A stretch of 64,000 nucleotides of DNA from the NCBI GenBank assembly GCA_026395295.1, contig JAPLYZ010000012.1:1299-65298 (forward strand), in the 5' to 3' direction. A program made the position numbers and the translations under genes. The notes below the pieces were generated by a model. It did not search any database. It was not told where the DNA came from and saw only the letters and a list, made by a program, of their open reading frames with translations. Positions 10,111 to 47,930 of this stretch are shown in pieces. Positions within the stretch are counted from its first letter, which is position 1, and the number at the start of each line of letters is the position of its first letter. The stretch comes from Candidatus Staskawiczbacteria bacterium (GTDB lineage Bacteria > Patescibacteriota > Minisyncoccia > Minisyncoccales > Staskawiczbacteraceae).

Positions 10111-10158
10111 GCGCTGGCAGACGAAAGTTTTAGGGACAAACAAATCGTCTGCCAGCGC
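10111..10158. repeat. 14-bp perfect GC-rich hairpin in the fur leader
   Basis: gcgctggcagacga (10111-10124) pairs with tcgtctgccagcgc (10145-10158) around a 20-nt loop, 8 nt upstream of the start codon. Confidence 0.8.
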
Positions 10159-10166
10159 GTAAAAAA

Positions 10167-10848: not shown

Positions 10849-10869
10849 AATTAATGTCCCTAATAAAAA

Positions 10870-11040: not shown

Positions 11041-11053
11041 TAAATAAAAATTT

Positions 11054-11659
11054 ATGGAAAAATACAAATTACCAAGTTTGCCATACGGGTATAAAGACTT
11101 AGAGCCCTATATGTCGGAAGAAGTTTTGACTCTGCACCACGACAAGCACCATGCAGCCTATGTTAATGCTGCTAACGCTTTGCTGGAAAAAATTCAGGAC
11201 GCCAGGCAAAATGACACAGGGTTAGATTACAAGTCGGTTTTGAAATCACTGTCTTTTAATGTGGCAGGTCATATCTTGCATGAAACATTTTGGCAGGTAA
11301 TGGCCCCGTCATCCGACGGGGCTGGCGCCCCCGAGAAAAAGGGAAAATTGTTGAAAGAAATAGAAAAAGAGTTTGGCAGTTTTGAGAGGTTTAAGACAGA
11401 ATTTTCCGAAACAGCAAAATCAGTTGAGGGTTCAGGCTGGGCGATTTTAGCGCATCACAAAGAGCACGGTGCTCTGGCAATAATGCAAGTGGAGAAACAC
11501 AATGTAAATTTTTATCCCGAGCAGAAAATTTTGTTATGTTTAGACGTTTGGGAACACGCATATTATTTAGATTACAAAAACGACCGGGCAAAATTCATAG
11601 AAAATTGGTGGAACATCGTCAACTGGAAAGAAGTGGAGAAGCGATTTATGGGCGAGTAA
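11054..11659 (+). CDS. Fe/Mn superoxide dismutase
   Basis: LPYGYKDLEPYMS, HHDKHH, and the DVWEHAYYLDYKN metal-ligand block. Carries an in-frame hairpin insert at 11303-11322. Confidence 0.9.
   Translation: MEKYKLPSLPYGYKDLEPYMSEEVLTLHHDKHHAAYVNAANALLEKIQDARQNDTGLDYKSVLKSLSFNVAGHILHETFWQVMAPSSDGAGAPEKKGKLLKEIEKEFGSFERFKTEFSETAKSVEGSGWAILAHHKEHGALAIMQVEKHNVNFYPEQKILLCLDVWEHAYYLDYKNDRAKFIENWWNIVNWKEVEKRFMGE
11303..11322. repeat. GC-rich hairpin (ccccgtc...gacgggg type) in frame in sod
   Basis: gccccgtc-atcc-gacggggc, encoding APSSDGAG. The same stem occurs at 10003-10028. Confidence 0.75.
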
Positions 11660-11764
11660 TCGGTAATTGGCAAAAGCGGTCCCCTGGACCGCTTTTAAGT
11701 TTGCTTTTTGGGGCGGTAAAGTGTTAAAATAATTTAATAGCTTAAAATTAAAAATTTGTAGTTT

Positions 11765-12427
11765 ATGATAACGCTAAACGATGTTAAAAATAGTCCGCAG
11801 GTTGTAAATTTTATAAATCAGACCGAGCGAGCCATGACTGCTTTGCATTATACCAACCATGGACTTCGGCACACTAATTTGGTTGCCGAGAGAGCAAGCC
11901 AAATTGCAAAGGGGATTGGCTTGTCCCAAAGAGAAGCCGAACTGGCTTCAATCGCCGGATTTTGTCATGACATGGGAAATTTTATGACAAGAACATTTCA
12001 CCATTATTATGCCGCTCTGCTTTTTCACCAGATATTTCAACACGAGTTTGAGCCGGAAGAAATTTCTACAGTGATGCAAGCAATTGCTAACCATGACAAA
12101 GAGGAGATGAATTTTTCCCACTCGGTTTCATCTGTGCTTGTTTTAGCTGACAAATCGGACGTGAACAGGACAAGAGTAACTGAAAAAGATATAAACAAAA
12201 TAAAATTAGACATCCATGACAAAGTAAATTACGCTACAACAGAAAGCAATTTGAAAATTGATAAAACTAAAAAAAGAATAACGTTGACTTTAAAAATTGA
12301 TACGAATTTCTGTCCCATAATGGAGTATTTCGAAATTTTTACAGAAAGAATGGTTTTTTGCAGAAAAGCGGCTGAATTTTTGGGATATGAGTTTGGTTTA
12401 GTAATTAACAAATTTAGGTTGTTATGA
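11765..12427 (+). CDS. HD domain phosphohydrolase
   Basis: HGLRHT...AGFCHDMGN (H...HD signature). Confidence 0.7.
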   Translation: MITLNDVKNSPQVVNFINQTERAMTALHYTNHGLRHTNLVAERASQIAKGIGLSQREAELASIAGFCHDMGNFMTRTFHHYYAALLFHQIFQHEFEPEEISTVMQAIANHDKEEMNFSHSVSSVLVLADKSDVNRTRVTEKDINKIKLDIHDKVNYATTESNLKIDKTKKRITLTLKIDTNFCPIMEYFEIFTERMVFCRKAAEFLGYEFGLVINKFRLL

Positions 12428-12894
12428 TAGGCAGAGAGTTTTATGTTATTTGCGATAATATAAGAAGCCTAGAGAATATAGGGTCAATTTTCAGGACATC
12501 GGACGCGCTTGGGGTTGATAAAATATATCTGTGCGGAATATCAGGGCGTCCACCACATCACAAAATTTCTAAAACCGCGCTAGGAGCAGAAGAAACAGTC
12601 CAATTTGAATATCACAGACAAATAGGGCGGTTGATTGATAAATTAAAAAAAGATAAAATTATAATTGTGGCATTGGAGCAGGGCAAAAGAGCGATTGATT
12701 ACAGAGAATTTAAACCAAAGTTTCCACTGGCCTTAATAATTGGCAACGAGGTTAAAGGAATTTCTAAAAAAATTCTACAAAAATGCGACAAAATAATTTT
12801 TTTGCCTATGTCTGGCGCAAAAGAATCATTAAACGTATCTGTGGCCTTCGGCATCGCAGGCTACCACATAATTAATATCGCTCGCCCCGCTTAG
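12424..12894 (+). CDS. SpoU/TrmH family RNA 2'-O-methyltransferase
   Basis: NIGSIFRTSDALG, LIIGNEVKGIS and SLNVSVAFGIA motif blocks. The last codons and stop lie in a palindrome. Confidence 0.85.
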   Translation: MIGREFYVICDNIRSLENIGSIFRTSDALGVDKIYLCGISGRPPHHKISKTALGAEETVQFEYHRQIGRLIDKLKKDKIIIVALEQGKRAIDYREFKPKFPLALIIGNEVKGISKKILQKCDKIIFLPMSGAKESLNVSVAFGIAGYHIINIARPA

Positions 12895-12911
12895 CGGGGC
12901 TCGCAAAAAAA

Positions 12912-13145
12912 ATGACACAAAAAGAAATAGAGCTTGTACAATTCGCGCATTTATTCAATAATCCTTGGTTTGCTGTTTTGTTCGCGGTTTTAGCGGTGTG
13001 GGTGCTTGTCTGGAAGGGGATTGCCCTTTGGAAAGCGGCCAGAAACAATCACACTGCCTGGTTTGTTATTCTTCTGATTGCGAATACATTCGGAATTTTA
13101 GAGATCGTTTATATTTTCTTTTTCAGCAAAAAAGAGAAGAAATAA
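12912..13145 (+). CDS. small two-TM membrane protein (DUF5652-like)
   Basis: 77 aa with two hydrophobic helices (WKGIALWKAARNNHTAWFV). Family name is from memory only. Confidence 0.5.
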   Translation: MTQKEIELVQFAHLFNNPWFAVLFAVLAVWVLVWKGIALWKAARNNHTAWFVILLIANTFGILEIVYIFFFSKKEKK

Positions 13146-13167
13146 ATAATTATAAAAACAAGGCAAT

Positions 13168-14103
13168 ATGGATATATTCCAAATTTTGGTTGTAGTATTT
13201 GGCTTGTGTCTTTTTGAGGTTATTTCCAGCGTTGATAACGCAATTATAAATGCGCATGTTTTGAAAACCTTGCCGGAAAAATACAGGAAGATTTTTCTGA
13301 CTTTCGGACTTTTAGTGGCAGTTGTTTTTGTCAGGGGGTTGTTGCCGTTTTTGATTGTTTGGCTGGCTAATCCAAGTTTTTCCCTTTCTCAGGTGGTAGG
13401 TTTTGTTTTTCATCCAACAGCCGAAATTAACGCCTACATAGAAAAGTCTCAGGCACTCTTGCTTCTGGCCGGCGGAGTTTATTTGTTTTTTGTTTTTTTA
13501 AGCTGGCTTTTTATGGAAGAGAAAAAATATGCTTTTTTGGTGGAAGAGTTCATACACAGGCAATCTGTCTGGTTCTATGCTTTTGCCTCTTTGTTTTTTA
13601 CAGCTGTAATTTATTTTTCCATAAAAGTAAATCCAATTTTAGCATTGTCAGCTGCCATTGGTTCTATGGCTTTTTTTATTACTGACGGTTTTAAAAGAAA
13701 TGCGGAGGAAAAAGAAAAAGAAATTTTGGGCAGCCATATATCGGCGTGGAGCAAAATTTTATATTTAGAAGTCTTAGATGCTACCTTTTCAATAGACGGA
13801 GTTATCGGAGCATTTGCTTTTACAATGTCAGTTCCTCTGATATTTTTGGGAAATGGCTTGGGAGCCTACATAGTCAGGGAATTCACGGTTAAAGGAACAA
13901 ATGTAATCGCAAAATTTGCTTATTTAAAAAACGGAGCAATGTATTCCATTGGATTTTTGGGGGCTATTATGGTTTTGGAAGCTTTCGGCAAAAATTTCCC
14001 GTTTTGGTTAGCCCCCCTAAACACAACCTTGCTTTTGGTTATCTTTATGGGGCTTTCTCTCAGAGAACTGCGCGACGCAAATCGGAAAAGGGAAGTTCGT
14101 TGA
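13168..14103 (+). CDS. DUF475/TerC-related integral membrane protein
   Basis: Multi-TM protein with the N-terminal EVISSVDNAIINA motif typical of the DUF475 (TerC superfamily). Confidence 0.65.
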   Translation: MDIFQILVVVFGLCLFEVISSVDNAIINAHVLKTLPEKYRKIFLTFGLLVAVVFVRGLLPFLIVWLANPSFSLSQVVGFVFHPTAEINAYIEKSQALLLLAGGVYLFFVFLSWLFMEEKKYAFLVEEFIHRQSVWFYAFASLFFTAVIYFSIKVNPILALSAAIGSMAFFITDGFKRNAEEKEKEILGSHISAWSKILYLEVLDATFSIDGVIGAFAFTMSVPLIFLGNGLGAYIVREFTVKGTNVIAKFAYLKNGAMYSIGFLGAIMVLEAFGKNFPFWLAPLNTTLLLVIFMGLSLRELRDANRKREVR

Positions 14104-34224: not shown

Positions 34225-36372
34225 ATGCAAAAAGAACCTCTTGTTCTCAGAATTTGTGATTTTGTCACAAAATATAGCGTTTACGCGTTAGTTTTTTTAA
34301 CACCGCTTTTTTTCCTGCCCCAAACTGCGGAGGTTTTAGATTTTAATAAGCAAGCGTTGCTGGTTTTGCTTGTTTTTATTTCTGTTTTCGCTTTGCTGTT
34401 AAAAACTCTAATCTCGGGAAAATTTGAAATAAATAAAAGTTTTTTCCACGTAATTGCCGGAGTTTTGTTTTTAGCATATCTTCTATCAACAATTTTCTCT
34501 GTATACAGATATGGAAGTTTTTGGGGTCAGCCTCAGCAAATTTCCGAGAGCGCGCTTACAGTAATTTGCCTGTTATTGTTCTATTTTGTGTTCAGCAACT
34601 TTTTTTCCAAAAAAGATATTTTAATATCGGCGATAGTCCTTTCTTTATCGGCTGTAATAGCGGAATTAGTAGGTGTCTTTCAGATTTTTGGCTTGTTTAT
34701 TCTGCCATTTGATTTTGCTAAGTCCTCGGCTTTTAACACGCTGGGTTCTTTCGGCGGTTTGGGGTTCTTTGTCGCCATACTTTTTCCGCTGGCAATGATG
34801 CTTTTGATTATTGTCAAAAAATGGTGGAGGTTTTTCTTTGCCCTGCAAATAGTTCTTTCCGCCTTGCTTTTAATTTTAATAAACTATCCAATAATTTGGT
34901 GGGTTGCTATAATTGGTTCGGCCCTAATTTTGCTGCTGGGTATAATAAAAAACGATCTCTTCGACGGAAGATGGCAGGCGCTTCCGATGTTTTTTTTGGT
35001 GGTGTCTTTGTTTTTTGTGATTTTCAACCCGCAAATAAATTGGCTTCCTCATCCGCAATCAGAAATTCTTCTTTCACAAAAATCTGGTTTAGACATAGCA
35101 ACCCGGGCGCTTAAAGCCAATCCCATTTTGGGCTCGGGCCCCGGGACTTTCGCCTACGACTTCTCAAAATTCAAAAATCCAGACTTTAGTAAGACTTCTT
35201 TATGGAATACGGCTTTTGGCAAATCTTCTTCAAAAGTTTTGAATAGCGCGGCAACAACCGGAGCGCTTGGATTTTTGGCTCTGCTGGCGTTTATGATTTT
35301 CCCAATTTTTTACGGAATTAAATTTTTCATAAGACGGGAAGAAAATAACAACGGTCCCGAGGCTGAAAAATCGCCGAGCCAAATTTATTCTATTTTGTTG
35401 ATTGGTTTGTCGGTTGCGCTGATTCAACAAATTATTGCTTGCTTTGTCTACAATTCAAACATTGTTTTGGATTTTGTTTTCTTTTTTATAATTGCCGCGT
35501 CAATGGGGCTTGTTTCCGAGCGCAAGCAAAAATATGTTTTAAAACAGTCTTCGGCAATTACACTGGGGGTTACTTTTGTTTTTACATTATTTTTTATCTT
35601 TGGAATTGGGCTTTTATTTTTAGGCGGGCAAAGATATGTTGCTGAAGCAAGTTATTACAAGGGGCTGGTTGCTTATCAGGCAGGTAAAAATGCCGACGGT
35701 TTGAAAAAATTAGAAACCGCTGTAAGTTTAAACTCAAAATCGGACTTATATTTTAGGCAGTTGTCGCAGGCGTATCTTATAAACTTACAGCAAGAATTGC
35801 AAAATGCAGGGTCTGCTTCAATCAGCGACCAGCAAAAAACAAAAATTCAAACTCTTGTGTCAAACTCCATTAATGCCGCTAAAATTGCAACAGACATAAA
35901 TCCAAACGACGTTAATAACTGGTCTTCGCGAGGATATGTTTACCAAAGTTTGTCTAATTTGCTAAGCGATGCCGAAACATGGGCAATAAGTTCTTACGAC
36001 TCGGCGTTAAAATTAGACCCAAGCAATCCTTATTTATTTTTCCAGGAGGGGAGCGTTTACCTGGCAGGCGTAAGCGCGCAAGGAATTTCGGCTGACCAAA
36101 AAAGTCAACTGCTGTTGAAGGCTCAAAAACAACTGGAAAAAGCTGTTGCGTTAACCCCAAGCTATTCCAATGCCCTGTATTCTCTGGGCATTGTTTACGA
36201 TTTGCTGGGGCAGAACGGCAAGGCCATAGATGCTTTTACAAAATTACAACAGTTAAATCCTGCAAACACAGACATTCCTAAAATTTTGGCTAATTTGAAA
36301 GCCGGCAAGTCAATTTTTCAAACCGCCACTCCTCCGGCGGAAACTCCCAGCGGCGCAGTCAATAAAAAGTAA
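34225..36372 (+). CDS. O-antigen ligase-like polytopic membrane protein with C-terminal TPR repeats
   Basis: More than 10 TM helices with a Wzy_C-like loop, then TPR-like repeats (YYKGLVAYQAGK..., ALKLDPSNPY..., AVALTPSYSNALYSLGIVY). Confidence 0.65.
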   Translation: MQKEPLVLRICDFVTKYSVYALVFLTPLFFLPQTAEVLDFNKQALLVLLVFISVFALLLKTLISGKFEINKSFFHVIAGVLFLAYLLSTIFSVYRYGSFWGQPQQISESALTVICLLLFYFVFSNFFSKKDILISAIVLSLSAVIAELVGVFQIFGLFILPFDFAKSSAFNTLGSFGGLGFFVAILFPLAMMLLIIVKKWWRFFFALQIVLSALLLILINYPIIWWVAIIGSALILLLGIIKNDLFDGRWQALPMFFLVVSLFFVIFNPQINWLPHPQSEILLSQKSGLDIATRALKANPILGSGPGTFAYDFSKFKNPDFSKTSLWNTAFGKSSSKVLNSAATTGALGFLALLAFMIFPIFYGIKFFIRREENNNGPEAEKSPSQIYSILLIGLSVALIQQIIACFVYNSNIVLDFVFFFIIAASMGLVSERKQKYVLKQSSAITLGVTFVFTLFFIFGIGLLFLGGQRYVAEASYYKGLVAYQAGKNADGLKKLETAVSLNSKSDLYFRQLSQAYLINLQQELQNAGSASISDQQKTKIQTLVSNSINAAKIATDINPNDVNNWSSRGYVYQSLSNLLSDAETWAISSYDSALKLDPSNPYLFFQEGSVYLAGVSAQGISADQKSQLLLKAQKQLEKAVALTPSYSNALYSLGIVYDLLGQNGKAIDAFTKLQQLNPANTDIPKILANLKAGKSIFQTATPPAETPSGAVNKK

Positions 36373-36553
36373 GCGAGCTACTTTATAATTCCCAATATCT
36401 AATATCCAATTACTAATAAAATGCCTAATTCTCAAATTCCAAAAAGCGTGGAGAGAAGCCAACGAACTACTCCAAAACGCACAATAACAAAGAAAAAGAT
36501 TTAGACATCATCTATATTCCTTTACAATCCTTTATATTCCTCTAACGTTACCC

Positions 36554-37393
36554 ATGGATACCAAAACTTTTTTACAGAACTTTGCTTTTGAAAATCCAAA
36601 TTGGCAAAACCTGCCTGACGACTGGCCAAATCCAAACACAACAAAATTGAGCTCTTCAGAAATCGGAAAACTACAAGCCGTTAAAACTTTATGGGAAAAT
36701 TTGAAACCGGAAAAAACAGAGCAAGTATCAAGGGTTTGGACAGACCCGGAAGGTTATAAATTTTTGGTCCAGTGGAGCAATGCAGTTTTGTTGAGATATT
36801 TGATAAGAAAAATTACCGATACTTTGCCAATTTTAAGTTATAGAGGAAATTACAGGAATATAAAGGACGCTAATAAATGTCCTCTAAATTCCTCTAATCC
36901 TCCTTTATCGCCATCCTCCAGTCGTCCGTCTGAACATCGGCGCAAGGCTCAGCTAGACGACGCGGCAAGAAGCGTTGTCAGAAATATTGAAGAAGGATAC
37001 AAAAGAGCAACCACAAAACAATATCTTGATTTTTTAAGCTATACCCAGGCTAGCTTGGAAGAAGTGAAGGGCGATGTTGTGGAATTGGCGCAAGATGGTT
37101 TTTTGAAATCGCGAGCAGGTTCTTTATTGTGCGACATAGAGATTGATTTGGCAGATTTTCACAACAGTCTAAAACAAATCAAAGGATTTTACAGGAATTT
37201 AGAGGATGTTTATCCTGTTTTAGCAAAAATTAAAGGCAGTGATTTAACGGTTGAGCAATTTATAGAGTTGATAAATAAAACAGATTTCCTTTTAAGAAAG
37301 TTAGTTGAGTCGTTAGAGAAAAAACAAGGTCAAAATTTAAAATTTTATCAGGTTGAACGGGCCAGGATTCAAGACGCAATCAAAAAACGATAA
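36554..37393 (+). CDS. four-helix-bundle (23S rRNA IVS-type) protein with N-terminal extension
   Basis: The core RKAQLDDAARSVVRNIEEGYKR.TTKQYLDFLSYTQASLEEV matches the TIGR02436-type pattern (RRA..S...NIaEG....s..e...fl..a.gSl.E). tccttta-word repeats lie inside and around the gene. Confidence 0.6.
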   Translation: MDTKTFLQNFAFENPNWQNLPDDWPNPNTTKLSSSEIGKLQAVKTLWENLKPEKTEQVSRVWTDPEGYKFLVQWSNAVLLRYLIRKITDTLPILSYRGNYRNIKDANKCPLNSSNPPLSPSSSRPSEHRRKAQLDDAARSVVRNIEEGYKRATTKQYLDFLSYTQASLEEVKGDVVELAQDGFLKSRAGSLLCDIEIDLADFHNSLKQIKGFYRNLEDVYPVLAKIKGSDLTVEQFIELINKTDFLLRKLVESLEKKQGQNLKFYQVERARIQDAIKKR

Positions 37394-37480
37394 AGGAACG
37401 TAAAGGATTTTAAAGGACAATAAAGGAAGAAAATTTAAATTCCTTTAACTTCCCTCTAGATTCCTTTATAATCCTTTAGC
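37394..37480. repeat. AT-rich 'taaagga / tccttta' word hairpin
   Basis: taaaggaacgtaaaggattttaaaggacaataaaggaag...ttcctttaacttccctctagattcctttataatccttta. Four words per arm in inverted orientation. Confidence 0.7.
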
Positions 37481-37526
37481 CAAACCAAGTAGATGAGTTT
37501 TTTGGACGTTGATACGCCCAAGAAAC

Positions 37527-37568
37527 TTATCCACAGTGTTGACACGTATTTTTCATGCTATAATAAAT
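37527..37568 (+). promoter_or_regulatory. candidate promoter of the surface locus with TTATCCACA motif
   Basis: TTATCCACA at 37527-37535 and TTGACA at 37539-37544. The -10 is either TATAAT at 37559 (14-nt spacer, short) or ATAAAT at 37563 (18-nt spacer). Confidence 0.35.
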
Positions 37569-37576
37569 AAAAATAT

Positions 37577-37759
37577 ATGTTTGTGATAAAATGCGATTTT
37601 TGCAAAAAGGAAGTTAAAGGAGATACTGTAATTGCAGGCAGGGGAGTTTTCGCGGCGCTAAAAGTAGAATTATGCGAGGAGTGTGGCGAGCCAATTTTGA
37701 AATTTTTACAGAGGAATAAAATTATTGATAAGAACAATAAAGAAATAAAAAAATTATAA
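37577..37759 (+). CDS. small zinc-ribbon protein
   Basis: 60 aa with CDFC...x26...CEEC. Confidence 0.5.
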   Translation: MFVIKCDFCKKEVKGDTVIAGRGVFAALKVELCEECGEPILKFLQRNKIIDKNNKEIKKL

Positions 37760-37764
37760 AAAGC

Positions 37765-37977
37765 ATGGAAAACAATAAAAAAATTACAATTGAAGAACTA
37801 GCGAAAATGATAAAAGCAGGTTTTGACGGCGTTGATAAAAAACTTGAGCAAGTTGCAACAAAAGATCAGTTTGATAATTTAGAGAGGAGGATGATTGTGG
37901 TTGAAGGAAAATTAACCTCAATCGATGAAAGATTAGAGAGAGTCGAAACAGTCTTAACTGACGCGCACGTTTTGTAA
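37765..37977 (+). CDS. small coiled-coil protein
   Basis: 70 aa with heptad-like LERRMIVVEGKLTSIDERLERVETVL. Confidence 0.45.
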   Translation: MENNKKITIEELAKMIKAGFDGVDKKLEQVATKDQFDNLERRMIVVEGKLTSIDERLERVETVLTDAHVL

Positions 37978-38018
37978 AAATTAGAATAATTAGGTTAATT
38001 AGAAAAATTTAATTTATA

Positions 38019-39860
38019 ATGGCAGAGAGAATCCCAATTAGAATTATTAAACAAAACCCAAAACGCAGAAGGCCTGCGATAAGTTTGTTTGCATCAATTT
38101 TGTCAGGCTTGGTTGTTGGCGGATTGTTTTCTGCCACCCTTTACGCTTTTGCCACTTATGGAGTTGACGCGCCATACCCGCTTGGAAACACTTTGAATCC
38201 TGACTGTGTGCCAGGAACAGCCAACTGCACCGTGGTTTCGCCGGCATATTTTTCTTATGGCTCAAATAATTTCTCGGGAGCAGGAGATTTCACCACCACA
38301 GGAACAGTCATGGCTGGAGGATTGACGATAACTGGCGCTGTTTCTCTACCGAACAACTCCATCACCAACGCGATGACTAACGCCACGAACGCCAACACCG
38401 CTTCCGCCATTGTCGCCCGAGACGCTTCCGGCAATTTCTCGGCTGGAACAATCACCGCCTCGCTCACCGGACATTCTTCGTTAGATTTGCCGCTTACCGG
38501 TGGAACTCTCACCGGCGTCTTGACCGCCACAAGTCCGGTTTTCACCACTCCAGCTCTTGGCACTCCGTCTGCTCTGGTCTTAACCAACGCTACGGGTCTT
38601 CCAGCTGCAAGTATTTTGGCCGGCAGTTTTGGCACTGGAGCTTATGTGATGGATACGTCGCTTTTAGTGCCTGCAATAAATGGCAGTTCATCGGCGAATG
38701 GTGTCTTGACTTTGCAAGGAACAACAAATGCGACGCGAACCACGAGTTATCTTAACTTGCAACCAAACGGAGGCAATGTAGGGATTGGGACGGCGACGCC
38801 AAGTGAGAAATTGCATATAGATTCTAATACCGCAAATACTGCTGTGGTAGAATATATACGTAATCTAAGCAATACTTCGGGAAGTAATGCTGCTTTATGG
38901 CTTCAAACGGCTGGTACGAGTGGAGGCGACCCGCGTATTGTTTATACGGTTGTAAATGCGACAGATTGGTGGTCGGGAGTGAATAATGCAAGCAGTCAGA
39001 AATATCAGATTTCTAACGGAAATTGGGCAACCGCTTCAAATGTGAAGTTGTCAATTTCGACAGACGGCTCTGTCGGCATTGGAATCACCGCGCCGACTTC
39101 TCTCTTGCACACAGTAAGTTCAGCCGCAAAGACCACTGCTTACACAGGCATACTTCACAGCGTGACAGATACTTCAAGCACCGCTTCCATCAACAAGATA
39201 GGCATGGACATTGAAAGCACAGGAACATGGAATGGAACTTCCGCCGTAAACACCGGACTGGTAGTCAACGCCACAGGTGGCACAACCAACTACGCGGCGA
39301 CATTCAGCGGAGGGAATGTGGGGATTGGGACGGCGACGCCAGGACAGAAACTTGATGTACAAGGAGCAATCGCGACTACACCAACATTGAGAGTTATGGG
39401 GAACGACACTGCTTCTTATGGATTATTCCAAGCTGGAACTAGTGTTGGTGATGCTGGGAGCGTAGGGGCAAGAATGGTTTTAGGTGATGTTGGAACAGGG
39501 GGAAAACGATGGGATATTGGAAGCGGTGAACGAGTCGCAGGAGCATTAAGTTTTTACAACGCTACTGATAATAGGGATGTGGTCACAATGCTAAGCAATG
39601 GCGCCGTCGGTATCGGCACCACAGCCCCTCTCAAGACTCTCGATGTCGCAGGAGGCGGAAGGTTCACAGGAAAAACTTCTTCCACTTTGACAGGCACAGC
39701 CGACCCTACAGCCAGCGTAACGCTTGTGGGCTCGGGAACATTGTTTACAACAGAATTAGTAGTTGGAGACAGAATCACTATCAACGCTGAAACAAGAACT
39801 GTTACCGCTATCGCTTCCGACACAAGCTTAACCGTGGATACCGCTTTCACGTCGGTATGA
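38019..39860 (+). CDS. membrane-anchored tail-fibre-like surface protein, part 1
   Basis: N-terminal basic stretch plus TM (RRRPAISLFASILSGLVVGGLFSATLYAF), a fibre-type segment SAIVARDASGNFSAGTITASLTG, and four G(N/S/A)VGIG(T/I)xxP modules. About 53% GC in a sampled line. Confidence 0.7.
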   Translation: MAERIPIRIIKQNPKRRRPAISLFASILSGLVVGGLFSATLYAFATYGVDAPYPLGNTLNPDCVPGTANCTVVSPAYFSYGSNNFSGAGDFTTTGTVMAGGLTITGAVSLPNNSITNAMTNATNANTASAIVARDASGNFSAGTITASLTGHSSLDLPLTGGTLTGVLTATSPVFTTPALGTPSALVLTNATGLPAASILAGSFGTGAYVMDTSLLVPAINGSSSANGVLTLQGTTNATRTTSYLNLQPNGGNVGIGTATPSEKLHIDSNTANTAVVEYIRNLSNTSGSNAALWLQTAGTSGGDPRIVYTVVNATDWWSGVNNASSQKYQISNGNWATASNVKLSISTDGSVGIGITAPTSLLHTVSSAAKTTAYTGILHSVTDTSSTASINKIGMDIESTGTWNGTSAVNTGLVVNATGGTTNYAATFSGGNVGIGTATPGQKLDVQGAIATTPTLRVMGNDTASYGLFQAGTSVGDAGSVGARMVLGDVGTGGKRWDIGSGERVAGALSFYNATDNRDVVTMLSNGAVGIGTTAPLKTLDVAGGGRFTGKTSSTLTGTADPTASVTLVGSGTLFTTELVVGDRITINAETRTVTAIASDTSLTVDTAFTSV

Positions 39861-41821
39861 CTGTGAATGATTTGGGGAATGTGGGGATTGGGACAGCGGC
39901 GCCGACAGGAAAATTCAACATTGTTTCTGATGACGCTATAGATTCTGATCCTATAAGTTATATTGATAGGTATGCGGGAGCTAATGTGGCAGCTATTTCG
40001 TCAATGGTCTACCGTAAAGCGAGAGGAACGAAGTCGACACCAACAGCTTTACAATCAGGTGATAGTATTGGAGGTCTAGCCTTTAGAGGTTATGGGGCGA
40101 CTGGTTTTCCAAGTGCTTCCACTGCCTTAATTAGCAGTGTAGCTGAACAGACTTTTACAGACTCAGCGATGGGCACAGCGTTAGCTTTCAAAACCACTCC
40201 TCTAAATTCAATCACATCGACAGAGGTAATGAGAATAAATAACGCTGGCTTTGTCGGCATCGGGACAGCTTCGCCGACAAATATCCTTTCTCTCGGCGGG
40301 CAGTCGGCTCAGACTTTCTGGATGGAACGGGAAACAACCGCCGCCACTGCCGGAAACAATCTGACCATCACAGCTGGCGGAGCGAAATCTGGCGGGACTG
40401 ATCTAGCGGGAGGTAATCTGATTTTAACTTCGGGCGTGGCGACTGGAGCGGGAACTTCGCAAATCACTTTCAACACATATCCCGCCGGTTCCACAGGAAC
40501 AGCCGACGCGACAGTCACAACAGCTTTGCAGATCATGGGTGATGGCACGGTGAAGGCAAGCAATTCAAAATGGTTCGCTTCGGTGGACAATGCCGGCACA
40601 GGCGTTATAAATATGTTCCGCGATAACGCTTCCGACCAGATAGAGCTGGGAGCTACGCTCGTAAGCGGGCCAATCGAAGCTGTCGCGGACGCCGGAAATG
40701 TTTCCATATTTGATGAACCATTAACCTTGGCTACAGGGAATGGAACTGCTGTATCAGCATCTCTGCGTTTGGCAGAAACAAACATCTTATCTATTTCTGG
40801 CATCTCTGATGGCAATGGAGGAATCACAAGCCCTTATGTCGGCATCGGCACGACTACTCCAGGAGCAATGTTGGATATTGGTTTGGCAGGAACAACTTTG
40901 GGCACAATGCGACTTGAAGGAAACACTTCCGGCTATGTTCAACTGCAATCAGCCGCCGCGGCCGGAAGCTGGACAATGACTTTGCCTGCGGCTGTCGGAG
41001 GCGGAGCCGGATATTTACTTACTGACGTTGCAGGCAATGGCATAACTTCTTGGACTGCTCCCGCATCTTCGCGCGACTTAAAAGATATTGCGGGAACCGT
41101 AACCGACCCGACCGAAGCCTTGACTCAAATTTTAGGAACGCCAATTTATCGCTTCCACTACAAACCGGGCATGGGCACAGGCGACACAGCAACAGAATAC
41201 GTGGGCGTAATGGCCGACGAAGCTCCATGGGCAATGCACTACAATGGCGCAATAATCAACCCGGTCAACACCTTGGGCTATATGGTTTTGGGAGTGCAAG
41301 CTTTGTCAAAGGAAATCGCCGACTTGAAAACCCAAATTAACTCCGGCGCAGGAACAGTTGGAGATGGCACAATTAACGGGTTAGACCTTAGCAGTCCGTT
41401 TGTTAAAGAAATTAAGAATATCTTAGCTTTGTTGGGAATAAAGACCAACAAAGGCTCGGTGGAAAAAATACAAATGGTTGACCAGGCAACCGGAGATATT
41501 TACTGCACGTGGATTGCCAATGGCGACTGGCAGAAACAAAAAGGAGCCTGTGACGAAATTTCAAATTCCCAATTACCAATTTCCAATGAAAGCGGGGGGA
41601 CGTCCGACATCCCCCCAACTGAGAGCGCCCCAACGCCTGACGTTGTAGAAACTCCGCCAATTACAGTAATCGAAACACCAGCTGAAACAACACCAGCTCC
41701 GGAAATAGTTCCGCCATCGCCCGAAATTACCGTTCCTCCTGCCGATGTTGTTGCGCCTCCACCTGCTGAAACACCAGTGCCTGCGTCCGACGCAACGCCT
41801 CCTGGCGCAGATTCCCAGTAG
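39857..41821 (+). CDS. tail-fibre-like surface protein, part 2, with S74-type intramolecular chaperone domain and Pro-rich tail
   Basis: ATGA overlap with part 1. Three more GxVGIGTxxP modules, then SSRDLKDI...IYRFHYK...YVGVMADEAP...LSKEIADLKTQI (Peptidase_S74 pattern), then ~160 aa including a PT/PE/PV-rich tail. Confidence 0.7.
   Translation: MTVNDLGNVGIGTAAPTGKFNIVSDDAIDSDPISYIDRYAGANVAAISSMVYRKARGTKSTPTALQSGDSIGGLAFRGYGATGFPSASTALISSVAEQTFTDSAMGTALAFKTTPLNSITSTEVMRINNAGFVGIGTASPTNILSLGGQSAQTFWMERETTAATAGNNLTITAGGAKSGGTDLAGGNLILTSGVATGAGTSQITFNTYPAGSTGTADATVTTALQIMGDGTVKASNSKWFASVDNAGTGVINMFRDNASDQIELGATLVSGPIEAVADAGNVSIFDEPLTLATGNGTAVSASLRLAETNILSISGISDGNGGITSPYVGIGTTTPGAMLDIGLAGTTLGTMRLEGNTSGYVQLQSAAAAGSWTMTLPAAVGGGAGYLLTDVAGNGITSWTAPASSRDLKDIAGTVTDPTEALTQILGTPIYRFHYKPGMGTGDTATEYVGVMADEAPWAMHYNGAIINPVNTLGYMVLGVQALSKEIADLKTQINSGAGTVGDGTINGLDLSSPFVKEIKNILALLGIKTNKGSVEKIQMVDQATGDIYCTWIANGDWQKQKGACDEISNSQLPISNESGGTSDIPPTESAPTPDVVETPPITVIETPAETTPAPEIVPPSPEITVPPADVVAPPPAETPVPASDATPPGADSQ
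41066..41340 (+). other. Peptidase_S74-like intramolecular chaperone / autoproteolysis domain (internal)
   Basis: The Ser-x-x-x-Lys start SSRDLK (codons 404-409 of the ORF) through LKTQI. Motif order as in endosialidase and tail-spike C-terminal chaperone domains. Confidence 0.6.
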
Positions 41822-41831
41822 TAGGCATTAT

Positions 41832-42476
41832 ATGAAAAACAAAAATATGAACAAACGTTTTGCTTTTATAGATGTTCAAAATACAGAAACAACCACTCGT
41901 CGTATGCTTGGTTTTTCAGTTGACTGGATGAAGCTTTTTCAATTTTTAAAAAATGATTGGAAATGTGAAAAAGTTTTTTTCTATTCAGGCATAGATGCAG
42001 GGGATTCGGAAATGGAAAAAGAATTCAAAATTCTCTCGGACGAGGGATGCATCGTCAGGTCAAAACTTGTTTTTGCGTATAAAAACAAGAATAAAACCGT
42101 GGATGTCAAATGTCACAAGTGTGGAAGCGAGTTTGAGGAGGTTGTGGATATGGGATACAACCGAAAATCAAATTGTGATGTCGACCTGACGGTTGACGCT
42201 ATGGAGTGCGCCGGACTAAGCACAGAATTTTATTTATTCACTGGCGATGGTGATTTCGAGTATCTAATTAAAAAAGTCGTTGAGAAGGGAACATTTGTTC
42301 ATATTGTATCGAGCGCAAAAAAGGCGCAAAGCGGTCCCAGATATTCTGTGTCGAGGTTCTCCACAAAATTAAGAAAATTAATTAAAGAAAAAGGAAAGTC
42401 AATAAATTTTTTAAACATTGACAATCTAAAGTTCCGTATAAAAAAGGAAAAGGCCGCGAAGCGCGACCTTTTCTAA
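41832..42476 (+). CDS. NYN domain (LabA/limkain-type) putative ribonuclease with inserted zinc ribbon
   Basis: FAFIDVQN, CDVDLTVDAM and LFTGDGDFEYLIKK acidic motifs, with a CHKCG insertion. ATG 41832 is preferred over the tracked 41745, which reads through the fibre gene's 3' end. Confidence 0.65.
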   Translation: MKNKNMNKRFAFIDVQNTETTTRRMLGFSVDWMKLFQFLKNDWKCEKVFFYSGIDAGDSEMEKEFKILSDEGCIVRSKLVFAYKNKNKTVDVKCHKCGSEFEEVVDMGYNRKSNCDVDLTVDAMECAGLSTEFYLFTGDGDFEYLIKKVVEKGTFVHIVSSAKKAQSGPRYSVSRFSTKLRKLIKEKGKSINFLNIDNLKFRIKKEKAAKRDLF

Positions 42477-42543
42477 GGATATTGTAATGTTATCAAATAT
42501 AAAACGAATGTCAAGTCTAATTATTCACAGCTCTGTTTCTCAA

Positions 42544-44418
42544 ATGAAAAAAATTTTATTTATCACAATTCTAACTTTGCTTTTAGCCCCTTCTGTCTTT
42601 TGCCATGCCGCGCAGATAGGGAACTTGGAAAAGGGTTTGGTGGGGCATTGGGCATTGGACAATATCACCAAGGCGAGAGACCTGTCGCCGTACGGCAATA
42701 ACGGCACAGGCGCGGGTGGCATAACCATAGGCGGAGCCACCGACCAGCACGGGCAAGCCAATAAGGCGACGACATTCACAGCGGCGAGTAGTCAGTATGT
42801 GGATGTTGGAGCTGGTTCAAAGTTTAATTTTGAAAGAACTAATCCATTTAGTATCGGTTTTTGGGCGAAAACAAGCACAGCTGCTATCCAGCGTCCTGTA
42901 AGCAAATTTGATACTTCGGGAAATTATTTCAGAGGATATGGAATCCAACTTGCTAGCACAATTACACAATTTCAGATTGTTAACACTTGGAGTACCAATG
43001 TTCTTGATGTCTATACATCGGATTCTATTACGAATGGGAATTGGCATTATGTTGCGGTAACTTATGACGGTAGTTCAACTGCGGCAGGAGCAAAAATATA
43101 TATTGACGGAACTTCTCGTTCATTGGCCACAGCGCATGATACTTTATCTGCAACTATACAAAATAGTATTTCATTACAAATGGGAGGTTCTTCTCCTACC
43201 AACAGGCAATACTTCAATGGCTCCCTCTCCGACGTCCGCATCTACAACCGCGCTTTGTCATCGGCGGAAGTTACCCAGCTCTATAATTCCTACCGTCCAC
43301 AAGTCCAAGTATCAAAAAATCTTGTGACTAATGGGAGTTTTACAAGTAGCACAACCGGCTGGACGGCGAGCAGTGCGAGTTTAGCGAGTGTGGCTGGTGG
43401 ACAATCAGGAAACGCTTTACAGATTACAAATACAACAGCTAATTCAGGATATGCTTATCAAACATTTTCAGGAGTAGCAGGGCAGATTTATCAAATAAGT
43501 TTTGGTGAGAAAAAGGGCACAGGAGCTTCTGGATGGATTTCTGTTGGAACTCTTCCAGGAGCTTATGATATTGTCGGGAATCAAGGATCTTTTGGTAATA
43601 CTAATTGGAATTTAAGAACTTTTACTTTTAAAGCGCCTACAACAAGAAGTTATTATCTTAATTTGTGGGTCAATACCATTGTTCAAAATGATACTTATCT
43701 CTTTGACGAAATCACCGTTACCGCTCCGAAAATCTCCACTGGCTCTCTACAGAAAGGTTTGGTCGGCTGGTGGAAATTGGACAATATCACAGGAGCGAGA
43801 GACAAGTCGGCGTATGGCAACAATGGCACAGGCGCAGGAGGCATAACCATAGGTGGAGCGACCGACCAGCACGGGCAAGCAGGCAAAGCGACGACATTTA
43901 ATGGGACGAGCCAGTATATTACTACCGCATCATCACCCGTTACTTCTACTAATTCCGCCTTTTCAGTATCAACTTGGGTAAATGCAACAACATTTTTGTC
44001 AATTAGTGGCGCTAATCGTAGGATATTGTCTGATGACATTAATGCAAATACGGCATTTCAATTAACTTTGAATACTGCTACTCTTGGTTATCAAAATGTA
44101 TTTACTTTTGTTGTTTATAAAAATGGAACGGAATATACAAAATTTACCACACCAGTTTGGAATACAAATACTTGGTATCATGTTGTCGCAGTATGGGACG
44201 GCAATGCTCATGTAATTTATGTCAATGGAGTTTCTCAAGCATTGACTTCTGATTCAGGTCTTTCAAAAGGAACCGCTGATAGTAAATTGCATATAGGAAG
44301 TCGCAATGGTAGTCCTAATACAGGATTTTTCTCCGGCTCCCTCGCCGACGTTCGCATCTACAACCGCGCTTTGTCAGCGGCGGAAGTCCTCTTGCTTTAT
44401 CAGGGGTATGGGAACTGA
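42544..44418 (+). CDS. secreted protein with two LamG (Laminin_G_3 / concanavalin-like lectin) domains flanking a CBM-like middle domain
   Basis: Signal peptide MKKILFITILTLLLAPSVFCHA. Two copies of GLVG.W.LDNIT.ARD.S.YGNNGTGAGGITIGGATDQHGQ...KATTF, each domain ending GSL(S/A)DVRIYNRALS(S/A)AEV. Confidence 0.75.
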   Translation: MKKILFITILTLLLAPSVFCHAAQIGNLEKGLVGHWALDNITKARDLSPYGNNGTGAGGITIGGATDQHGQANKATTFTAASSQYVDVGAGSKFNFERTNPFSIGFWAKTSTAAIQRPVSKFDTSGNYFRGYGIQLASTITQFQIVNTWSTNVLDVYTSDSITNGNWHYVAVTYDGSSTAAGAKIYIDGTSRSLATAHDTLSATIQNSISLQMGGSSPTNRQYFNGSLSDVRIYNRALSSAEVTQLYNSYRPQVQVSKNLVTNGSFTSSTTGWTASSASLASVAGGQSGNALQITNTTANSGYAYQTFSGVAGQIYQISFGEKKGTGASGWISVGTLPGAYDIVGNQGSFGNTNWNLRTFTFKAPTTRSYYLNLWVNTIVQNDTYLFDEITVTAPKISTGSLQKGLVGWWKLDNITGARDKSAYGNNGTGAGGITIGGATDQHGQAGKATTFNGTSQYITTASSPVTSTNSAFSVSTWVNATTFLSISGANRRILSDDINANTAFQLTLNTATLGYQNVFTFVVYKNGTEYTKFTTPVWNTNTWYHVVAVWDGNAHVIYVNGVSQALTSDSGLSKGTADSKLHIGSRNGSPNTGFFSGSLADVRIYNRALSAAEVLLLYQGYGN

Positions 44419-44467
44419 GTGCGCGTATGTTTGTATATTGTATTTAGTATATTGTATATTGGGTTAA

Positions 44468-44842
44468 ATGATTGAGGAAAATAAACAAAAAATTAAATCT
44501 TTTACAGATCTAAACGCGTGGAAAGAAGGACACTGTTTAGTTTTATTGATTTATAAGTTAATTAGCAGTTTTCCCCAAGAGGAAAAATTTGCTCTTGCAG
44601 ATCAAATGAGACGATGTGTGACTTCTGTAACTTCAAATATAGCAGAGGGATTTTCAAGACAGTCCAAAAAAGAGAAATTACAATTTTATTCGATATCAAA
44701 AGGGTCTCTAACCGAACTTCAAAATCAGTTAATAATTGCAAGAGATGTAAGATATATTTCAGAGGTAACTTTCGGAGAGACAATAGAAAAAATAACGGCA
44801 GTCGGTCGCCTTTTAACGGGACTTATTCAATACTTGCGTTAA
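44468..44842 (+). CDS. four-helix-bundle protein (23S rRNA intervening-sequence-type)
   Basis: SFTDLNAWKEGHCLVLLIYKL...FPQEEKFALADQMRRCVTSVTSNIAEGFSRQSKKEKLQFYSISKGSLTELQNQL, the canonical TIGR02436-type pattern. Confidence 0.8.
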   Translation: MIEENKQKIKSFTDLNAWKEGHCLVLLIYKLISSFPQEEKFALADQMRRCVTSVTSNIAEGFSRQSKKEKLQFYSISKGSLTELQNQLIIARDVRYISEVTFGETIEKITAVGRLLTGLIQYLR

Positions 44843-44905
44843 TCTATGCAAACATACAAAATACAACATACAAAATACGATATACGACATACGATATACA
44901 TAGTA

Positions 44906-47215
44906 ATGTTGTTTTTGCTAACAATGCCGGTTTTTGCGTTTGCTTCGGCAACACATGGAACAATTGATGACGTTTATAAATATGCATGGGCTGATAAAGC
45001 AGGCTGGATTAATTTTGGCGCAACGCACGGTGGAGTTGCTGTAACCGACGACGGTTTGTTGGGTTATGCATGGAGTGAAAATTTTGGATGGATAAATTTA
45101 AGCCTAGCAGGCAATGGCGTAAAAAATAATGGAGAGGGCGTTCTTTCAGGCTACGCCTGGGGAGACAACACCGGCTGGATAAATTTTTCCGGAGTTGTAA
45201 TTGATGATTTAGGAAAGTTTTCCGGAACAGCTTCGGGAGACATTACCGGAACTGTTAATTTTAATTCTGCCGAATGTCCAAATTGCCATGTTGCCACTGA
45301 CTGGAGGCCAAAACGGGTTAGGGGAGGAGCGTTACCTCCAAGCGTCTTATCTTTGCCCAGCACTCCAGCTTCCGGTTTTAGTATTTTAATAAACAACGGA
45401 CAAACATACACAAACAATCCTCTGGTAATGCTTCAGTTAAATGCCGGCGCTGACGTAAAAACAATGGTAATATCCGAGTCGCCAAATTTTGAAAACGCGG
45501 GGCAGGAAAATTATCAAGTGGCAAAAAATTACACTTTGAGCCAGGGAGACGGACAAAAAACTATTTACGTTAAATTTTACACGCAATATGGACAGCCGTC
45601 GCAGGTTGTGCAAAGCAGTATTATTTTAAAAACCCAGCCTCCGGAAATAAAAATAACCTCTGTTAAAAATTTATACAACGCCGACGAAGAGGTTGTTTTA
45701 AGCGGAATAACCAGCGCTAATGCCGAGGTTTCTTTCTATTTAGACCAAAGATATGGTTCTTTCCAGGCTGATGCCAGCGGAAGTTGGCTGATAACTTTGG
45801 GAAAAATGAGCTCGGGCGCGCACAAACTGGAAATGACTGCCCACGACCTTGCCGGAAACAACAGCCAGCCATTGGCAGTTGAATTTTCCGTGGGGGCAAC
45901 AACCGTGGCACAAACTCCATTGCCTTTGCTGGGTCGGGCGTTAGAACCAATTTTAAGGCAATTAGAAAATGGCGTGGCTCCTTTTGTGGCGCAGTTTTTT
46001 CCTCGTAAACAAGTTCCGGTTGCAGTAGTAACAGTTCCTAAAATTCCGCCAATGGCTTTAAGTTCAAAGTGGAATATTTTTCCAACAAAACCGGTTCAGT
46101 TGTTTGTTTTGGCTCCTTTGCCGGCGGAAATAAATGTTTTAGCGGAAAAATTTCCGAGCGTTCAGAAGACTTTCAGCGAAGTGGGAATTTCAAAAATTAC
46201 TGACATTGAAAAATTAAAAAATACAAAATTAAATTTACCGGGGCTAAGTCAGTTTATTGGATTGGAACCAACAGAAGTTGCGCCGGGAAAATTCGCTCCT
46301 TTGGCAGGTATTAAAATTGCCGATTTGCCCGCTGAGTTAAAACAGCAAATTCCTTCCGACATTGCTTTTACGCGAGTTGGCGGGGGCCTGATTGATGTCA
46401 GTACAGGGTTGTCTGTAAACAACCAGGGAAGTCCCAGCCAAACAATTGAGACCACCTCGGGAGCCTCGCTTGAGTTTATAGTGAAGGTGGACGCGCCGGC
46501 AAATAAGGTCACAGGATATATTGTTTTTACTTCAAGGAAGCCACAAACGTTGTCCAAAAATATTCCCATGAATTATTTGACGGCTTCTTTATCTTTTGCC
46601 CCGCCAAATTTTGCTAAGGCTCAAACTAAGCCGGTTGAGGTTGAAGAAAAAATGGTCTTATCTAAATTTGAATATCACAATACCGGCAACGGAGTTTACA
46701 CTGCCATGGTTCAGGCGCCAACAGTTTCAGGGCAGTACGAAATAATTACAGTGGTTGATTATAAAGACATAAAGGTGGGGTCAAAAGAATTAAGGCTGGT
46801 CACTGTTGTTGACCCGGAAGGCTATGTTTATGAAAAAAAAGGCGACAAAGAAACAAGAATTGGCGGAGCGGTAGCGTCGCTTTATTGGTTAAATCCAAGC
46901 ACTAAAAAATATGAACTTTGGCCTGCAAAAACTTTTCAGCAAGATAATCCGCAGGTTACCGATGTAAGCGGGACATATTCGTTTTTAGTGCCCGAGGGCT
47001 ACTATTATCTAAAGGTCGATGCCCCGGGCTATTTGAGTTATGAGGGAGAGCCAATTCAGGTAAAATCGGGAAGCGGCGTGCACGTTAATGTTGAATTGAA
47101 AACCAAGTATTGGTTTTTACAACTGATAGATTGGAAAACCATTCTGTTGATAGCAGTTGTGCTTTTACTATTATACAATTTTTATCAGGATAAAAGACGC
47201 CAGATAGCTCAATAA
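44906..47215 (+). CDS. large surface protein (GWINF repeats, Ig-like region, carboxypeptidase-regulatory-like domain, C-terminal TM anchor)
   Basis: Signal MLFLLTMPVFAFASA. Three YAW...GWIN(F/L) repeats and DPEGYVYE...TDVSGTYSFLVPEGYYYLKVDAPGY (CarboxypepD_reg-like). C-terminal TM WKTILLIAVVLLLLYNF. The tracked start 44846 lies in the atac-word repeat. Confidence 0.7.
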   Translation: MLFLLTMPVFAFASATHGTIDDVYKYAWADKAGWINFGATHGGVAVTDDGLLGYAWSENFGWINLSLAGNGVKNNGEGVLSGYAWGDNTGWINFSGVVIDDLGKFSGTASGDITGTVNFNSAECPNCHVATDWRPKRVRGGALPPSVLSLPSTPASGFSILINNGQTYTNNPLVMLQLNAGADVKTMVISESPNFENAGQENYQVAKNYTLSQGDGQKTIYVKFYTQYGQPSQVVQSSIILKTQPPEIKITSVKNLYNADEEVVLSGITSANAEVSFYLDQRYGSFQADASGSWLITLGKMSSGAHKLEMTAHDLAGNNSQPLAVEFSVGATTVAQTPLPLLGRALEPILRQLENGVAPFVAQFFPRKQVPVAVVTVPKIPPMALSSKWNIFPTKPVQLFVLAPLPAEINVLAEKFPSVQKTFSEVGISKITDIEKLKNTKLNLPGLSQFIGLEPTEVAPGKFAPLAGIKIADLPAELKQQIPSDIAFTRVGGGLIDVSTGLSVNNQGSPSQTIETTSGASLEFIVKVDAPANKVTGYIVFTSRKPQTLSKNIPMNYLTASLSFAPPNFAKAQTKPVEVEEKMVLSKFEYHNTGNGVYTAMVQAPTVSGQYEIITVVDYKDIKVGSKELRLVTVVDPEGYVYEKKGDKETRIGGAVASLYWLNPSTKKYELWPAKTFQQDNPQVTDVSGTYSFLVPEGYYYLKVDAPGYLSYEGEPIQVKSGSGVHVNVELKTKYWFLQLIDWKTILLIAVVLLLLYNFYQDKRRQIAQ

Positions 47216-47235
47216 TAACGTAACACAATAAAAAA

Positions 47236-47598
47236 ATGATAACCAAAAAGACAATTTTAACAGCAGTGATAGGAATTTTAGTCGCCGGTAATATATTGCT
47301 TGGCGTGGAGTTTTTTATTTCTCAGCAAGAATTAAAAATAGCTGAAAAAAGTGTTAGCGCCCAGCAAAATAGCGCCAAGGTTCTGCAATTTACAAACCTT
47401 TTTATAGAAAAAGTTTTGAAAGCGCAGGCAGAAATTTCTTTTGAGGATAGGTTGAAGTTAGAGAATTCCGTCAGAGATTTGAAAGATCCGGAAATTCTCG
47501 CCCAGTGGCAGAAATTTACCGCAAGCCAAACACAACAAGATGCTCAGCAGGAAGTTAAGAATTTGCTTGAACTTTTAGTCAAAAAAATTCCATTATAA
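47236..47598 (+). CDS. small membrane-anchored hypothetical protein
   Basis: N-terminal TM helix plus a helical ectodomain. No family recognised. Confidence 0.45.
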   Translation: MITKKTILTAVIGILVAGNILLGVEFFISQQELKIAEKSVSAQQNSAKVLQFTNLFIEKVLKAQAEISFEDRLKLENSVRDLKDPEILAQWQKFTASQTQQDAQQEVKNLLELLVKKIPL

Positions 47599-47660
47599 AA
47601 AAACTCCGCAGATTTTAGTTGCTTTTAGCTGGCAATTAAAACCCGCGGAGTTTTTTTAAT

Positions 47661-47731
47661 TCGGGGAAGGGAGAATCGAACTCCCACCGCACGCACCCCA
47701 TGCGTGAATCCTGCCGTTGGACCATTCCCCG
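47661..47731 (-). tRNA. tRNA-Pro (anticodon GGG)
   Basis: The reverse complement folds with acceptor cggggaa/ttccccg, anticodon stem cacgc/gcgtg with loop atGGGgt (G37), and T-arm gggag-ttcgatt-ctccc. Confidence 0.9.
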
Positions 47732-47744
47732 AGGCAGGGAAGAG

Positions 47745-47930
47745 TTATATTTTAGCGGTGCGTTTAATACACTTAGCGCATGCGAGCACTCTTTTGCCGG
47801 AAGGTAATTTAACCCATTGAAGATTTGGGTATTTTCTTACTCTTGAGGTTGGGTTATATTTTCCTCTTAGTTTTACGAGGGTTACGCCCATTGCTGAATG
47901 TTTCCCGCAAATTGTACAAATTTTTTCCAT
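47745..47930 (-). CDS. rpmB: 50S ribosomal protein L28 (zinc-binding form)
   Basis: MEKICTICGKHSAMGVTLVKLRGKYNPTSRVRKYPNLQWVKL...CAKC. Internal ATG at 47930 is preferred over the tracked start at 48023. Confidence 0.85.
   Translation of the reverse strand: MEKICTICGKHSAMGVTLVKLRGKYNPTSRVRKYPNLQWVKLPSGKRVLACAKCIKRTAKI

Follow-up and report, generated by a model that had tools for sequence, protein, structure and literature searches.

A modular fiber gene of Candidatus Staskawiczbacteria, very probably split by a 67-nucleotide deletion, with an internal S74-type chaperone domain

The S74/ICA (intramolecular chaperone autocleavage) domain (family PF13884) is present in phage proteins such as the endosialidase endoNF of K1F (3gw6) and the T5 L-shaped tail fiber, where it lies at the extreme C terminus, assists trimer folding, and then cuts itself off at a conserved Ser. 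A published example of an internal ICA domain is MyRF (PMC3742443, PMC3742440, PMC8326128), a eukaryotic membrane-bound transcription factor with a transmembrane helix and a lumenal domain downstream of the ICA, from which a DNA-binding trimer is freed. MyRF is cleaved between P586 and S587, and the counterparts of its S587 and K592 in endoNF are S911 and K916 (PMC8326128). Here we analyze a gene for a fiber-like protein with an S74/ICA domain in a 64,000-nt stretch of a metagenome-assembled genome (MAG) of Candidatus Staskawiczbacteria, a member of the candidate phyla radiation (CPR); this stretch, positions 1,299 to 65,298 of contig JAPLYZ010000012.1 (assembly GCA_026395295.1), is referred to as the window. 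The gene appears there as two overlapping open reading frames (ORFs), which we consider very likely to be one 1289-aa fiber gene, encoding a modular CPR fiber protein, that has been split by a 67-nt deletion in this assembly.

The fiber protein shares with the phage proteins its domain family and a body that matches PHROG tail fiber families, and by analogy it is predicted to undergo the same trimer folding and self-cleavage at the conserved Ser. In contrast to them, it is encoded on a chromosome, carries an export signal, and continues for 160 residues after the S74 domain, whereas the phage proteins are virion parts made in the cytoplasm. Like MyRF, its S74/ICA domain is internal, with a Ser-Lys spacing of +5; a C-terminal helix drives trimerization of MyRF (PMC3742443, PMC8326128) and is predicted to do so in the fiber protein. 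Unlike MyRF, the fiber protein has a long extracellular-type fiber upstream of the ICA and, downstream of it, a helix, a two-Cys β-module, and a Pro-rich tail, and it lacks a hydrophobic segment beyond the N-terminal one. Mosaic VGIGT bodies joined to S74 domains also occur in bacterial proteins that NCBI names "tail fiber domain-containing protein" or "beta strand repeat-containing protein" (P0062, P0085, P0109, and P0121). Relative to these, the S74 domain of the CPR subgroup is of a distinctive subtype with high conservation (YVGVMADEAPWAMHY...NPVNTLGY), and after the ICA comes a conserved module that is missing from most of the non-CPR matches with a terminal domain.

The junction between ORF1 and ORF2

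The two ORFs are deposited at NCBI as the "hypothetical proteins" MCX6724162.1 (ORF1) and MCX6724163.1 (ORF2; 100% identity), and ORF2 lies in the -1 frame relative to ORF1. The stop codon of ORF1 and the start codon of ORF2 overlap in the sequence ATGA at 39857-39860, as the initial annotation had observed in describing the pair as translationally coupled. The features around the junction are as follows.

38019..39860, + strand: ORF1, 613 aa; residues 1-611 of the intact protein P0242, followed by two frameshifted codons (S, V) and TGA
39857..41821, + strand: ORF2, 654 aa; corresponds to residues 636-1289 of the intact protein and begins at the internal Met636
39729..39851, + strand: conserved "GSGTLFTTELVVGDRITINAETRTVTAIASDTSLTVDTAFT" module, its 3' end cut by the deletion
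39850..39851: breakpoint of the 67-nt deletion, relative to L029 5345-5411 (TGACACAGCTCCGGCAAGTATAACTAAACTCTCTGCTATCTTCTTGGCTCGATTGTCTAATAGTGCT); flanks 100% identical over 5344 and 7971 nt

The 90%-identity cluster to which ORF2 belongs also includes ORF1 and a protein of 1289 aa (P0242) from a Logan assembly of run SRR20698638, composed of ORF1(1-611), DTAPASITKLSAIFLARLSNSAVG, and ORF2(1-654). P0242 is encoded on the Logan contig L029, on which the genes are ordered as in the window; L029 positions 1-5344 are 100% identical to window positions 34507-39850, and L029 positions 5412-13382 are 100% identical to window positions 39851-47821. Relative to this contig, exactly 67 nt are missing from the window between 39850 and 39851, and this is the sole difference across 13.3 kb. 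Loss of 67 nt removes 22 codons and one base, after which the shifted ORF1 frame reads AC|G TCG GTA TGA and stops two codons past the breakpoint. The ORF1/ORF2 boundary is 1 to 7 nt from the breakpoint, and the ATG of ORF2 is the first start codon in its own frame after an upstream stop. Since the TGA of the shifted ORF1 overlaps the codon for the internal Met636, the apparent ATGA coupling arises incidentally from the deletion.

Relatives likewise read through the junction in one frame, and an uninterrupted frame of this kind, as in L029, is what the initial annotation had named as counting against its own reading. The 67-nt segment aligns with the equivalent segment of a single-ORF Zambryskibacteria protein (P0012; TDTANDTAVDKLAAVFIARDANSIP), and the "GSGTLFTTELVVGDRITINAETRTVTAIASDTSLTVDTAFT" module, which is interrupted in the window, runs on as DTA..ITKL.AIFLAR... 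in P0012, in L029, and in nine related metagenome loci; in these nine loci, ...SLTVDTAFTDTA..ITKLPAIFLAR...GNVGIGT is continuous. A 980-aa protein (P0049) aligns collinearly across the junction, and two others (P0167 and P0211) combine an ORF1-type N terminus (64% identity) with the two-Cys module of ORF2 in one polypeptide. Complete single ORFs of 989 to 1958 aa with a hydrophobic N-terminal segment, an S74 domain, and a C-terminal extension are found in L012, L014, L016, and L028; the N terminus is ORF1-like in L012 and L028, and L014 and L016 are counted on their hydrophobic N terminus only. P0017 and P0012 were left out as examples of proteins that start without a signal because contig ends truncate them or coincide with their starts. 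Judged from these comparisons, the intact one-frame form is the ancestral one.

A genuine two-gene operon, in which ORF1 and ORF2 would be separate fiber subunits coupled by termination and reinitiation at ATGA, is therefore difficult to reconcile with the identical flanks of L029, which is one frame with 67 extra nucleotides. The overlap is clean, both ORFs are intact and annotated as two proteins, conserved protein sequence extends up to the stop and onward from the ATG, and phages such as T4 have multi-subunit fibers (PMC5537660). However, the missing 22 codons are part of a module conserved in the nine relatives, ORF2 lacks the export signal present in single-ORF relatives, and no orthologue with a conserved two-gene arrangement was found among the relatives. 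We consider the operon reading extremely improbable. Programmed -1 frameshifting was also rejected, given that a slippery heptamer is absent upstream of the stop and that this reading became superfluous once the 67-nt indel was found.

With the single-gene reading, MCX6724162.1 and MCX6724163.1 would be the halves of one gene, and the locus illustrates that a single indel can mimic translational coupling.

Origin of the 67-nt difference

The deletion may be a real population variant, or it may be an assembly or consensus error. In the second case, the difference would be purely an artefact of the deposited MAG and the organism would carry the intact gene only, which we regard as a possibility to be taken seriously but short of an even chance. 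An error of this kind is consistent with the fact that the two assemblies differ only by these 67 nt across the shared region, that repetitive, mosaic fiber genes are often located at contig ends, where assemblies break, and that frameshifts occur in two other related MAG loci. On the other side, microhomology at the deletion borders amounts to 0 nt, the breakpoint has no repeat, and a graph assembler would require reads with that junction; the nearest 20-nt exact repeat is 25 nt away and in frame, and the deleted segment forms no hairpin or other unusual DNA structure (z = 0.34). Since a junction without a shared k-mer normally needs supporting reads, we lean slightly toward a real minority or alternative allele. 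An exact search of the JGI (Joint Genome Institute) metagenomes with the sequence just downstream of the junction returned no match.

The initial annotation had pointed to repeats of ~30 nt around the GNVGIGT modules as ready-made sites for shuffling between the two ORFs. Recombination or misassembly at these repeats was considered as the cause of the split and rejected, since 25 nt separate the breakpoint from the nearest copy downstream and all of the repeats keep the frame of the ORF in which they lie. Whichever origin applies, the deletion allele is probably a null allele. The split version is likely nonfunctional because the ORF1 product would lack the chaperone domain and the ORF2 product would lack an export signal.

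Disruptions are present in 3 of 27 loci of the CPR S74 fiber family, namely, the window, L007, and L008. In L007 (MFVE01000005.1, Candidatus Nomurabacteria RIFCSPLOWO2_01_FULL_42_17), a run of ten G residues interrupts a related S74 fiber gene at 5370-5385 and parts a signal peptide and collagen-like N terminus (ORF 5071-5385) from the remainder (5225-7840); nine G residues would restore one frame. The tract may be phase variable or may reflect a homopolymer sequencing error. In L008 (PFRK01000050.1, Candidatus Nomurabacteria), a 1-nt frameshift at ~356-362 falls just before a GNVGIGT module (TVDLNK | GNVGIGT), and the stretch that is frameshifted there is continuous in P0017 (TVDLNNGNVGIGT).

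The fiber body, the S74/ICA domain, and the region after it

The intact protein would consist, in order, of a Sec signal or anchor, a two-Cys motif, seven VGIGT modules, the S74/ICA domain, a helix with a two-Cys β-module, and a Pro-rich tail. Its N terminus and body contain the following features.

38073..38156, + strand: hydrophobic segment, residues ~19-46; the sole one in the protein, with the top Kyte-Doolittle windows at residues 19-27
38157..38243, + strand: motif Y-x-[PL]-G-x-T-L-[ND]-P-x-C...C (Cys63, Cys70), conserved in relatives
38772..40864, + strand: seven G-x-VGIGT-x-x-P modules, starting at 38772, 39066, 39312, 39600, 39875, 40247, and 40832

Since the hydrophobic segment comes after KRRR and ends in AFA, it is likely a Sec signal peptide or signal anchor. 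This N terminus recurs in the single-ORF relatives P0167 and P0211 (64% identity) and in P0049, L012, and L028. The fiber protein is probably either secreted or anchored at the surface.

The VGIG motif occurs seven times, with four copies in ORF1 and three in ORF2, in agreement with the module count given previously; elsewhere in the window, six-frame translation of the 64 kb yielded only one match to [VI]GIG[TI]. The near identity reported for three copies at the DNA level also held, as copies 1, 3, and 5 (38772, 39312, and 39875) are identical at 26 to 29 of 33 nt. These copies use the same codon at 5 to 8 of 9 to 10 shared residues, relative to 0 to 4 of 6 to 9 for other module pairs. Given that their DNA similarity goes beyond that of the protein motif, copies 1, 3, and 5 point to more recent duplication or gene conversion. 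The body as a whole is a mosaic, in which blocks such as residues 344-453 of ORF1 are 60 to 78% identical to proteins of many bacteria and adjacent blocks are not, a pattern that fits module exchange in general. A scan of the intact protein against NCBIfam found no family, and the likeness to tail fibers proposed earlier was borne out by PHROG, in which the intact protein matched phrog_9942, "tail fiber protein" (E = 7e-15), and phrog_18345 (E = 1.3e-7).

The S74/ICA domain and the sequence that follows it occupy the last part of ORF2.

41051..41338, + strand: S74/ICA domain, ORF2 residues ~399-494; Ser404 at 41066-41068, Lys409 at 41081-41083, and a long helix at its end
41369..41557, + strand: post-ICA module, a helix and a three-stranded β-unit with the invariant Cys550 and Cys565 (ORF2 numbering)
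41561..41818, + strand: 86-aa low-complexity tail rich in Pro, Thr, Ser, Ala, Glu, and Val (26% Pro); relatives have similar tails

The assignment of the S74 domain in the initial annotation was upheld, and sequence comparison supports the homology well. The S74-like stretch starts at the codon for Ser404 (41066), and Ser404 and Lys409 (SSRDLK; Ser1039 and Lys1044 of the intact protein) align with the expected +5 spacing and are invariant in an alignment of 40 sequences. PF13884 scored 22.4 bits on the domain alone (cut-off, 22) and matched 32 of the 40 close relatives. When the alignment of this subtype was compared with that of 71 canonical S74 domains using hhalign, the two matched with 97.2% probability (E = 3.3e-11) over 106 columns, and a jackhmmer search from a canonical S74 seed reached four members of the subtype. 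An AlphaFold2 (AF2) monomer model had a pLDDT (predicted local distance difference test) score of 63 overall and 70 to 87 in the S74/ICA domain, with a helix at ORF2 residues 472-499. When this model was compared with PDB structures using Foldseek, three chains of the MyRF ICA (7dc3, MyRF/MrfA) were the best matches (probability, 0.91 to 0.97, with 0.96 for the top match; E = 0.03 to 0.07; template modeling [TM] score, 0.35 to 0.38), and endoNF (3gw6) came only 20th (probability, 0.08). One relative of 690 aa (P0003, Joint Genome Institute) was observed to carry two domains of this subtype in tandem, at residues 144-239 and 271-360.

By analogy with the phage proteins and MyRF, the fiber protein is probably trimeric. 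After export, three ICA domains would trimerize via their C-terminal helices and template the folding of the fiber, whereupon the Ser-Lys dyad would cut between Ala1038 and Ser1039. The predicted cut would free a C-terminal fragment of 251 aa, close to the ~250 aa estimated previously. Several observations weigh against this reading of the locus. Full-length ORF2 scored only 18.6 bits against PF13884, which is under the cut-off, and the S74 subtype profile matched no PDB sequence at E ≤ 1, so that fold and profile-profile comparisons were used instead. The structural match to MyRF is weak (E = 0.03; TM score, 0.38) and the underlying model is mediocre (pLDDT, 63). Trimerization, export, and cleavage are all inferences. 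Lastly, ORF2 is open for 654 codons, which is expected if the deletion is recent but would also be compatible with residual function.

The S74 domain is indeed internal, as had been noted, and the 160 residues that follow it do comprise a Cys-containing unit and a Pro-rich tail, the latter measuring 86 aa. The internal position is nonetheless not an anomaly. The database set comprised 67 proteins with this S74 subtype, and in these the domain ends within 31 residues of the C terminus in 43 and is followed by 59 to 577 residues in 24. When loci from species-representative genomes were considered (mostly Nomurabacteria, Paceibacterota, Moraniibacteriota, and Saccharibacteria), at least 137 residues followed the domain in 24 of 26. 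An internal S74 domain is thus the majority state among the genome loci, and MyRF provides a precedent. The extensions of the relatives follow a common plan of a coiled coil, an amphipathic helix, a two-Cys unit (…TG.xYC…NG……G.C or ELC….C..xQL..LL), sometimes an immunoglobulin-like domain, and a Pro/Glu/Thr-rich tail.

The helix and two-Cys β-module is widespread and uncharacterized, and it is the sole mildly novel element of the locus. Its profile matched 2015 cluster representatives, of which 770 had E ≤ 1e-10; the matched proteins reach 7453 aa in length, and giant proteins of 2000 to 7453 aa are among the carriers (P0243-P0387 being sequences drawn from the matches). The unit is usually located 70 to 300 residues from the C terminus, and in 60 of the 145 best matches a recognizable S74 domain lies directly upstream of it, with a median gap of 8 residues. 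One of these 145 resembled, weakly and below the threshold, Peptidase_G2, a second family whose name refers to an intramolecular-chaperone cleavage domain. AF2 modeled the module as a helix and a three-stranded sheet with pLDDT scores of 87 to 92, and a comparison of this model with PDB structures gave no match (best E = 0.22). A literature search found no publication linking CPR bacteria with the S74/ICA domain.

Two further readings, that the region after S74 is a functional unit of its own or that the frameshifts represent real and frequent on/off variation of CPR fiber genes, are considered jointly here, and we regard it as rather unlikely that either applies. In the first, the coiled coil, helix/two-Cys β-module, and Pro-rich tail would form the unit, for which an envelope tether is one possibility; if so, CPR surface fibers would be released or matured by ICA self-cleavage acting as a switch, much as in MyRF. 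In the second, the 67-nt deletion and the frameshifts in L007 (at the G10 tract) and L008 (1 nt) would be instances of such variation, with which the cells could respond to pressure from phages or hosts.

Attachment to other cells is the way of life of CPR bacteria, yet few of their surface structures have been characterized. The analysis suggests a large family of exported, probably trimeric CPR fibers that would combine a self-cleaving chaperone of the phage and MyRF type with a conserved, unstudied C-terminal module. This family is a reasonable candidate for attachment structures.

Genomic setting

The initial annotation had treated the gene as phage-like. A phage or prophage tail fiber gene within the bacterial chromosome would account for the PHROG tail fiber matches (E = 7e-15 and 1e-7), for the presence of an S74 domain, and for the GC content of the gene (38019-41821), which is 0.50 compared to 0.39 for the window. 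However, the flanking genes are cellular and encode a P-type ATPase, a short-chain dehydrogenase, EF-G, EF-Tu, an O-antigen-ligase-like TPR protein, an NYN protein, a two-LamG protein, and a Big-domain protein. When ten neighbors were scanned against PHROG, capsid, terminase, portal, and tail genes were absent, and no integrase or other phage core genes were found in the neighborhood. The N-terminal signal or anchor is absent from virion proteins assembled in the cytoplasm, and the chromosomal contigs of CPR bacteria over which the relatives are spread reach 450 kb. The fiber protein is richest in Thr, Gly, and Ala, which together make up 38% of it, and this composition probably accounts for much of the raised GC content. 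A phage origin of this kind is thus highly unlikely, and the fiber gene is a chromosomal gene of the CPR bacterium Candidatus Staskawiczbacteria.

All large ORFs of the window are on the + strand. Upstream of the fiber gene, positions 36554-37393 (+) encode a 279-aa protein with a 23S_rRNA_IVP domain, which has the Avd fold. A 124-aa Avd-like protein is encoded at 44468-44842 (+), between the two-LamG and Big-domain proteins, and matches the PHROG family "Avd protein of DGR" (diversity-generating retroelement; E = 1.6e-12) and Pfam bAvd. A DGR around this gene was not established, as no reverse transcriptase and no pair of template and variable repeats were seen within 30-52 kb. The two-LamG gene (42487-44418, +) encodes a 643-aa protein with two LamG/ConA-like domains and contains an internal DNA duplication, in which positions 42631-42788 and 43753-43910 are 80% identical and positions 43219-43284 and 44335-44400 are 86% identical.

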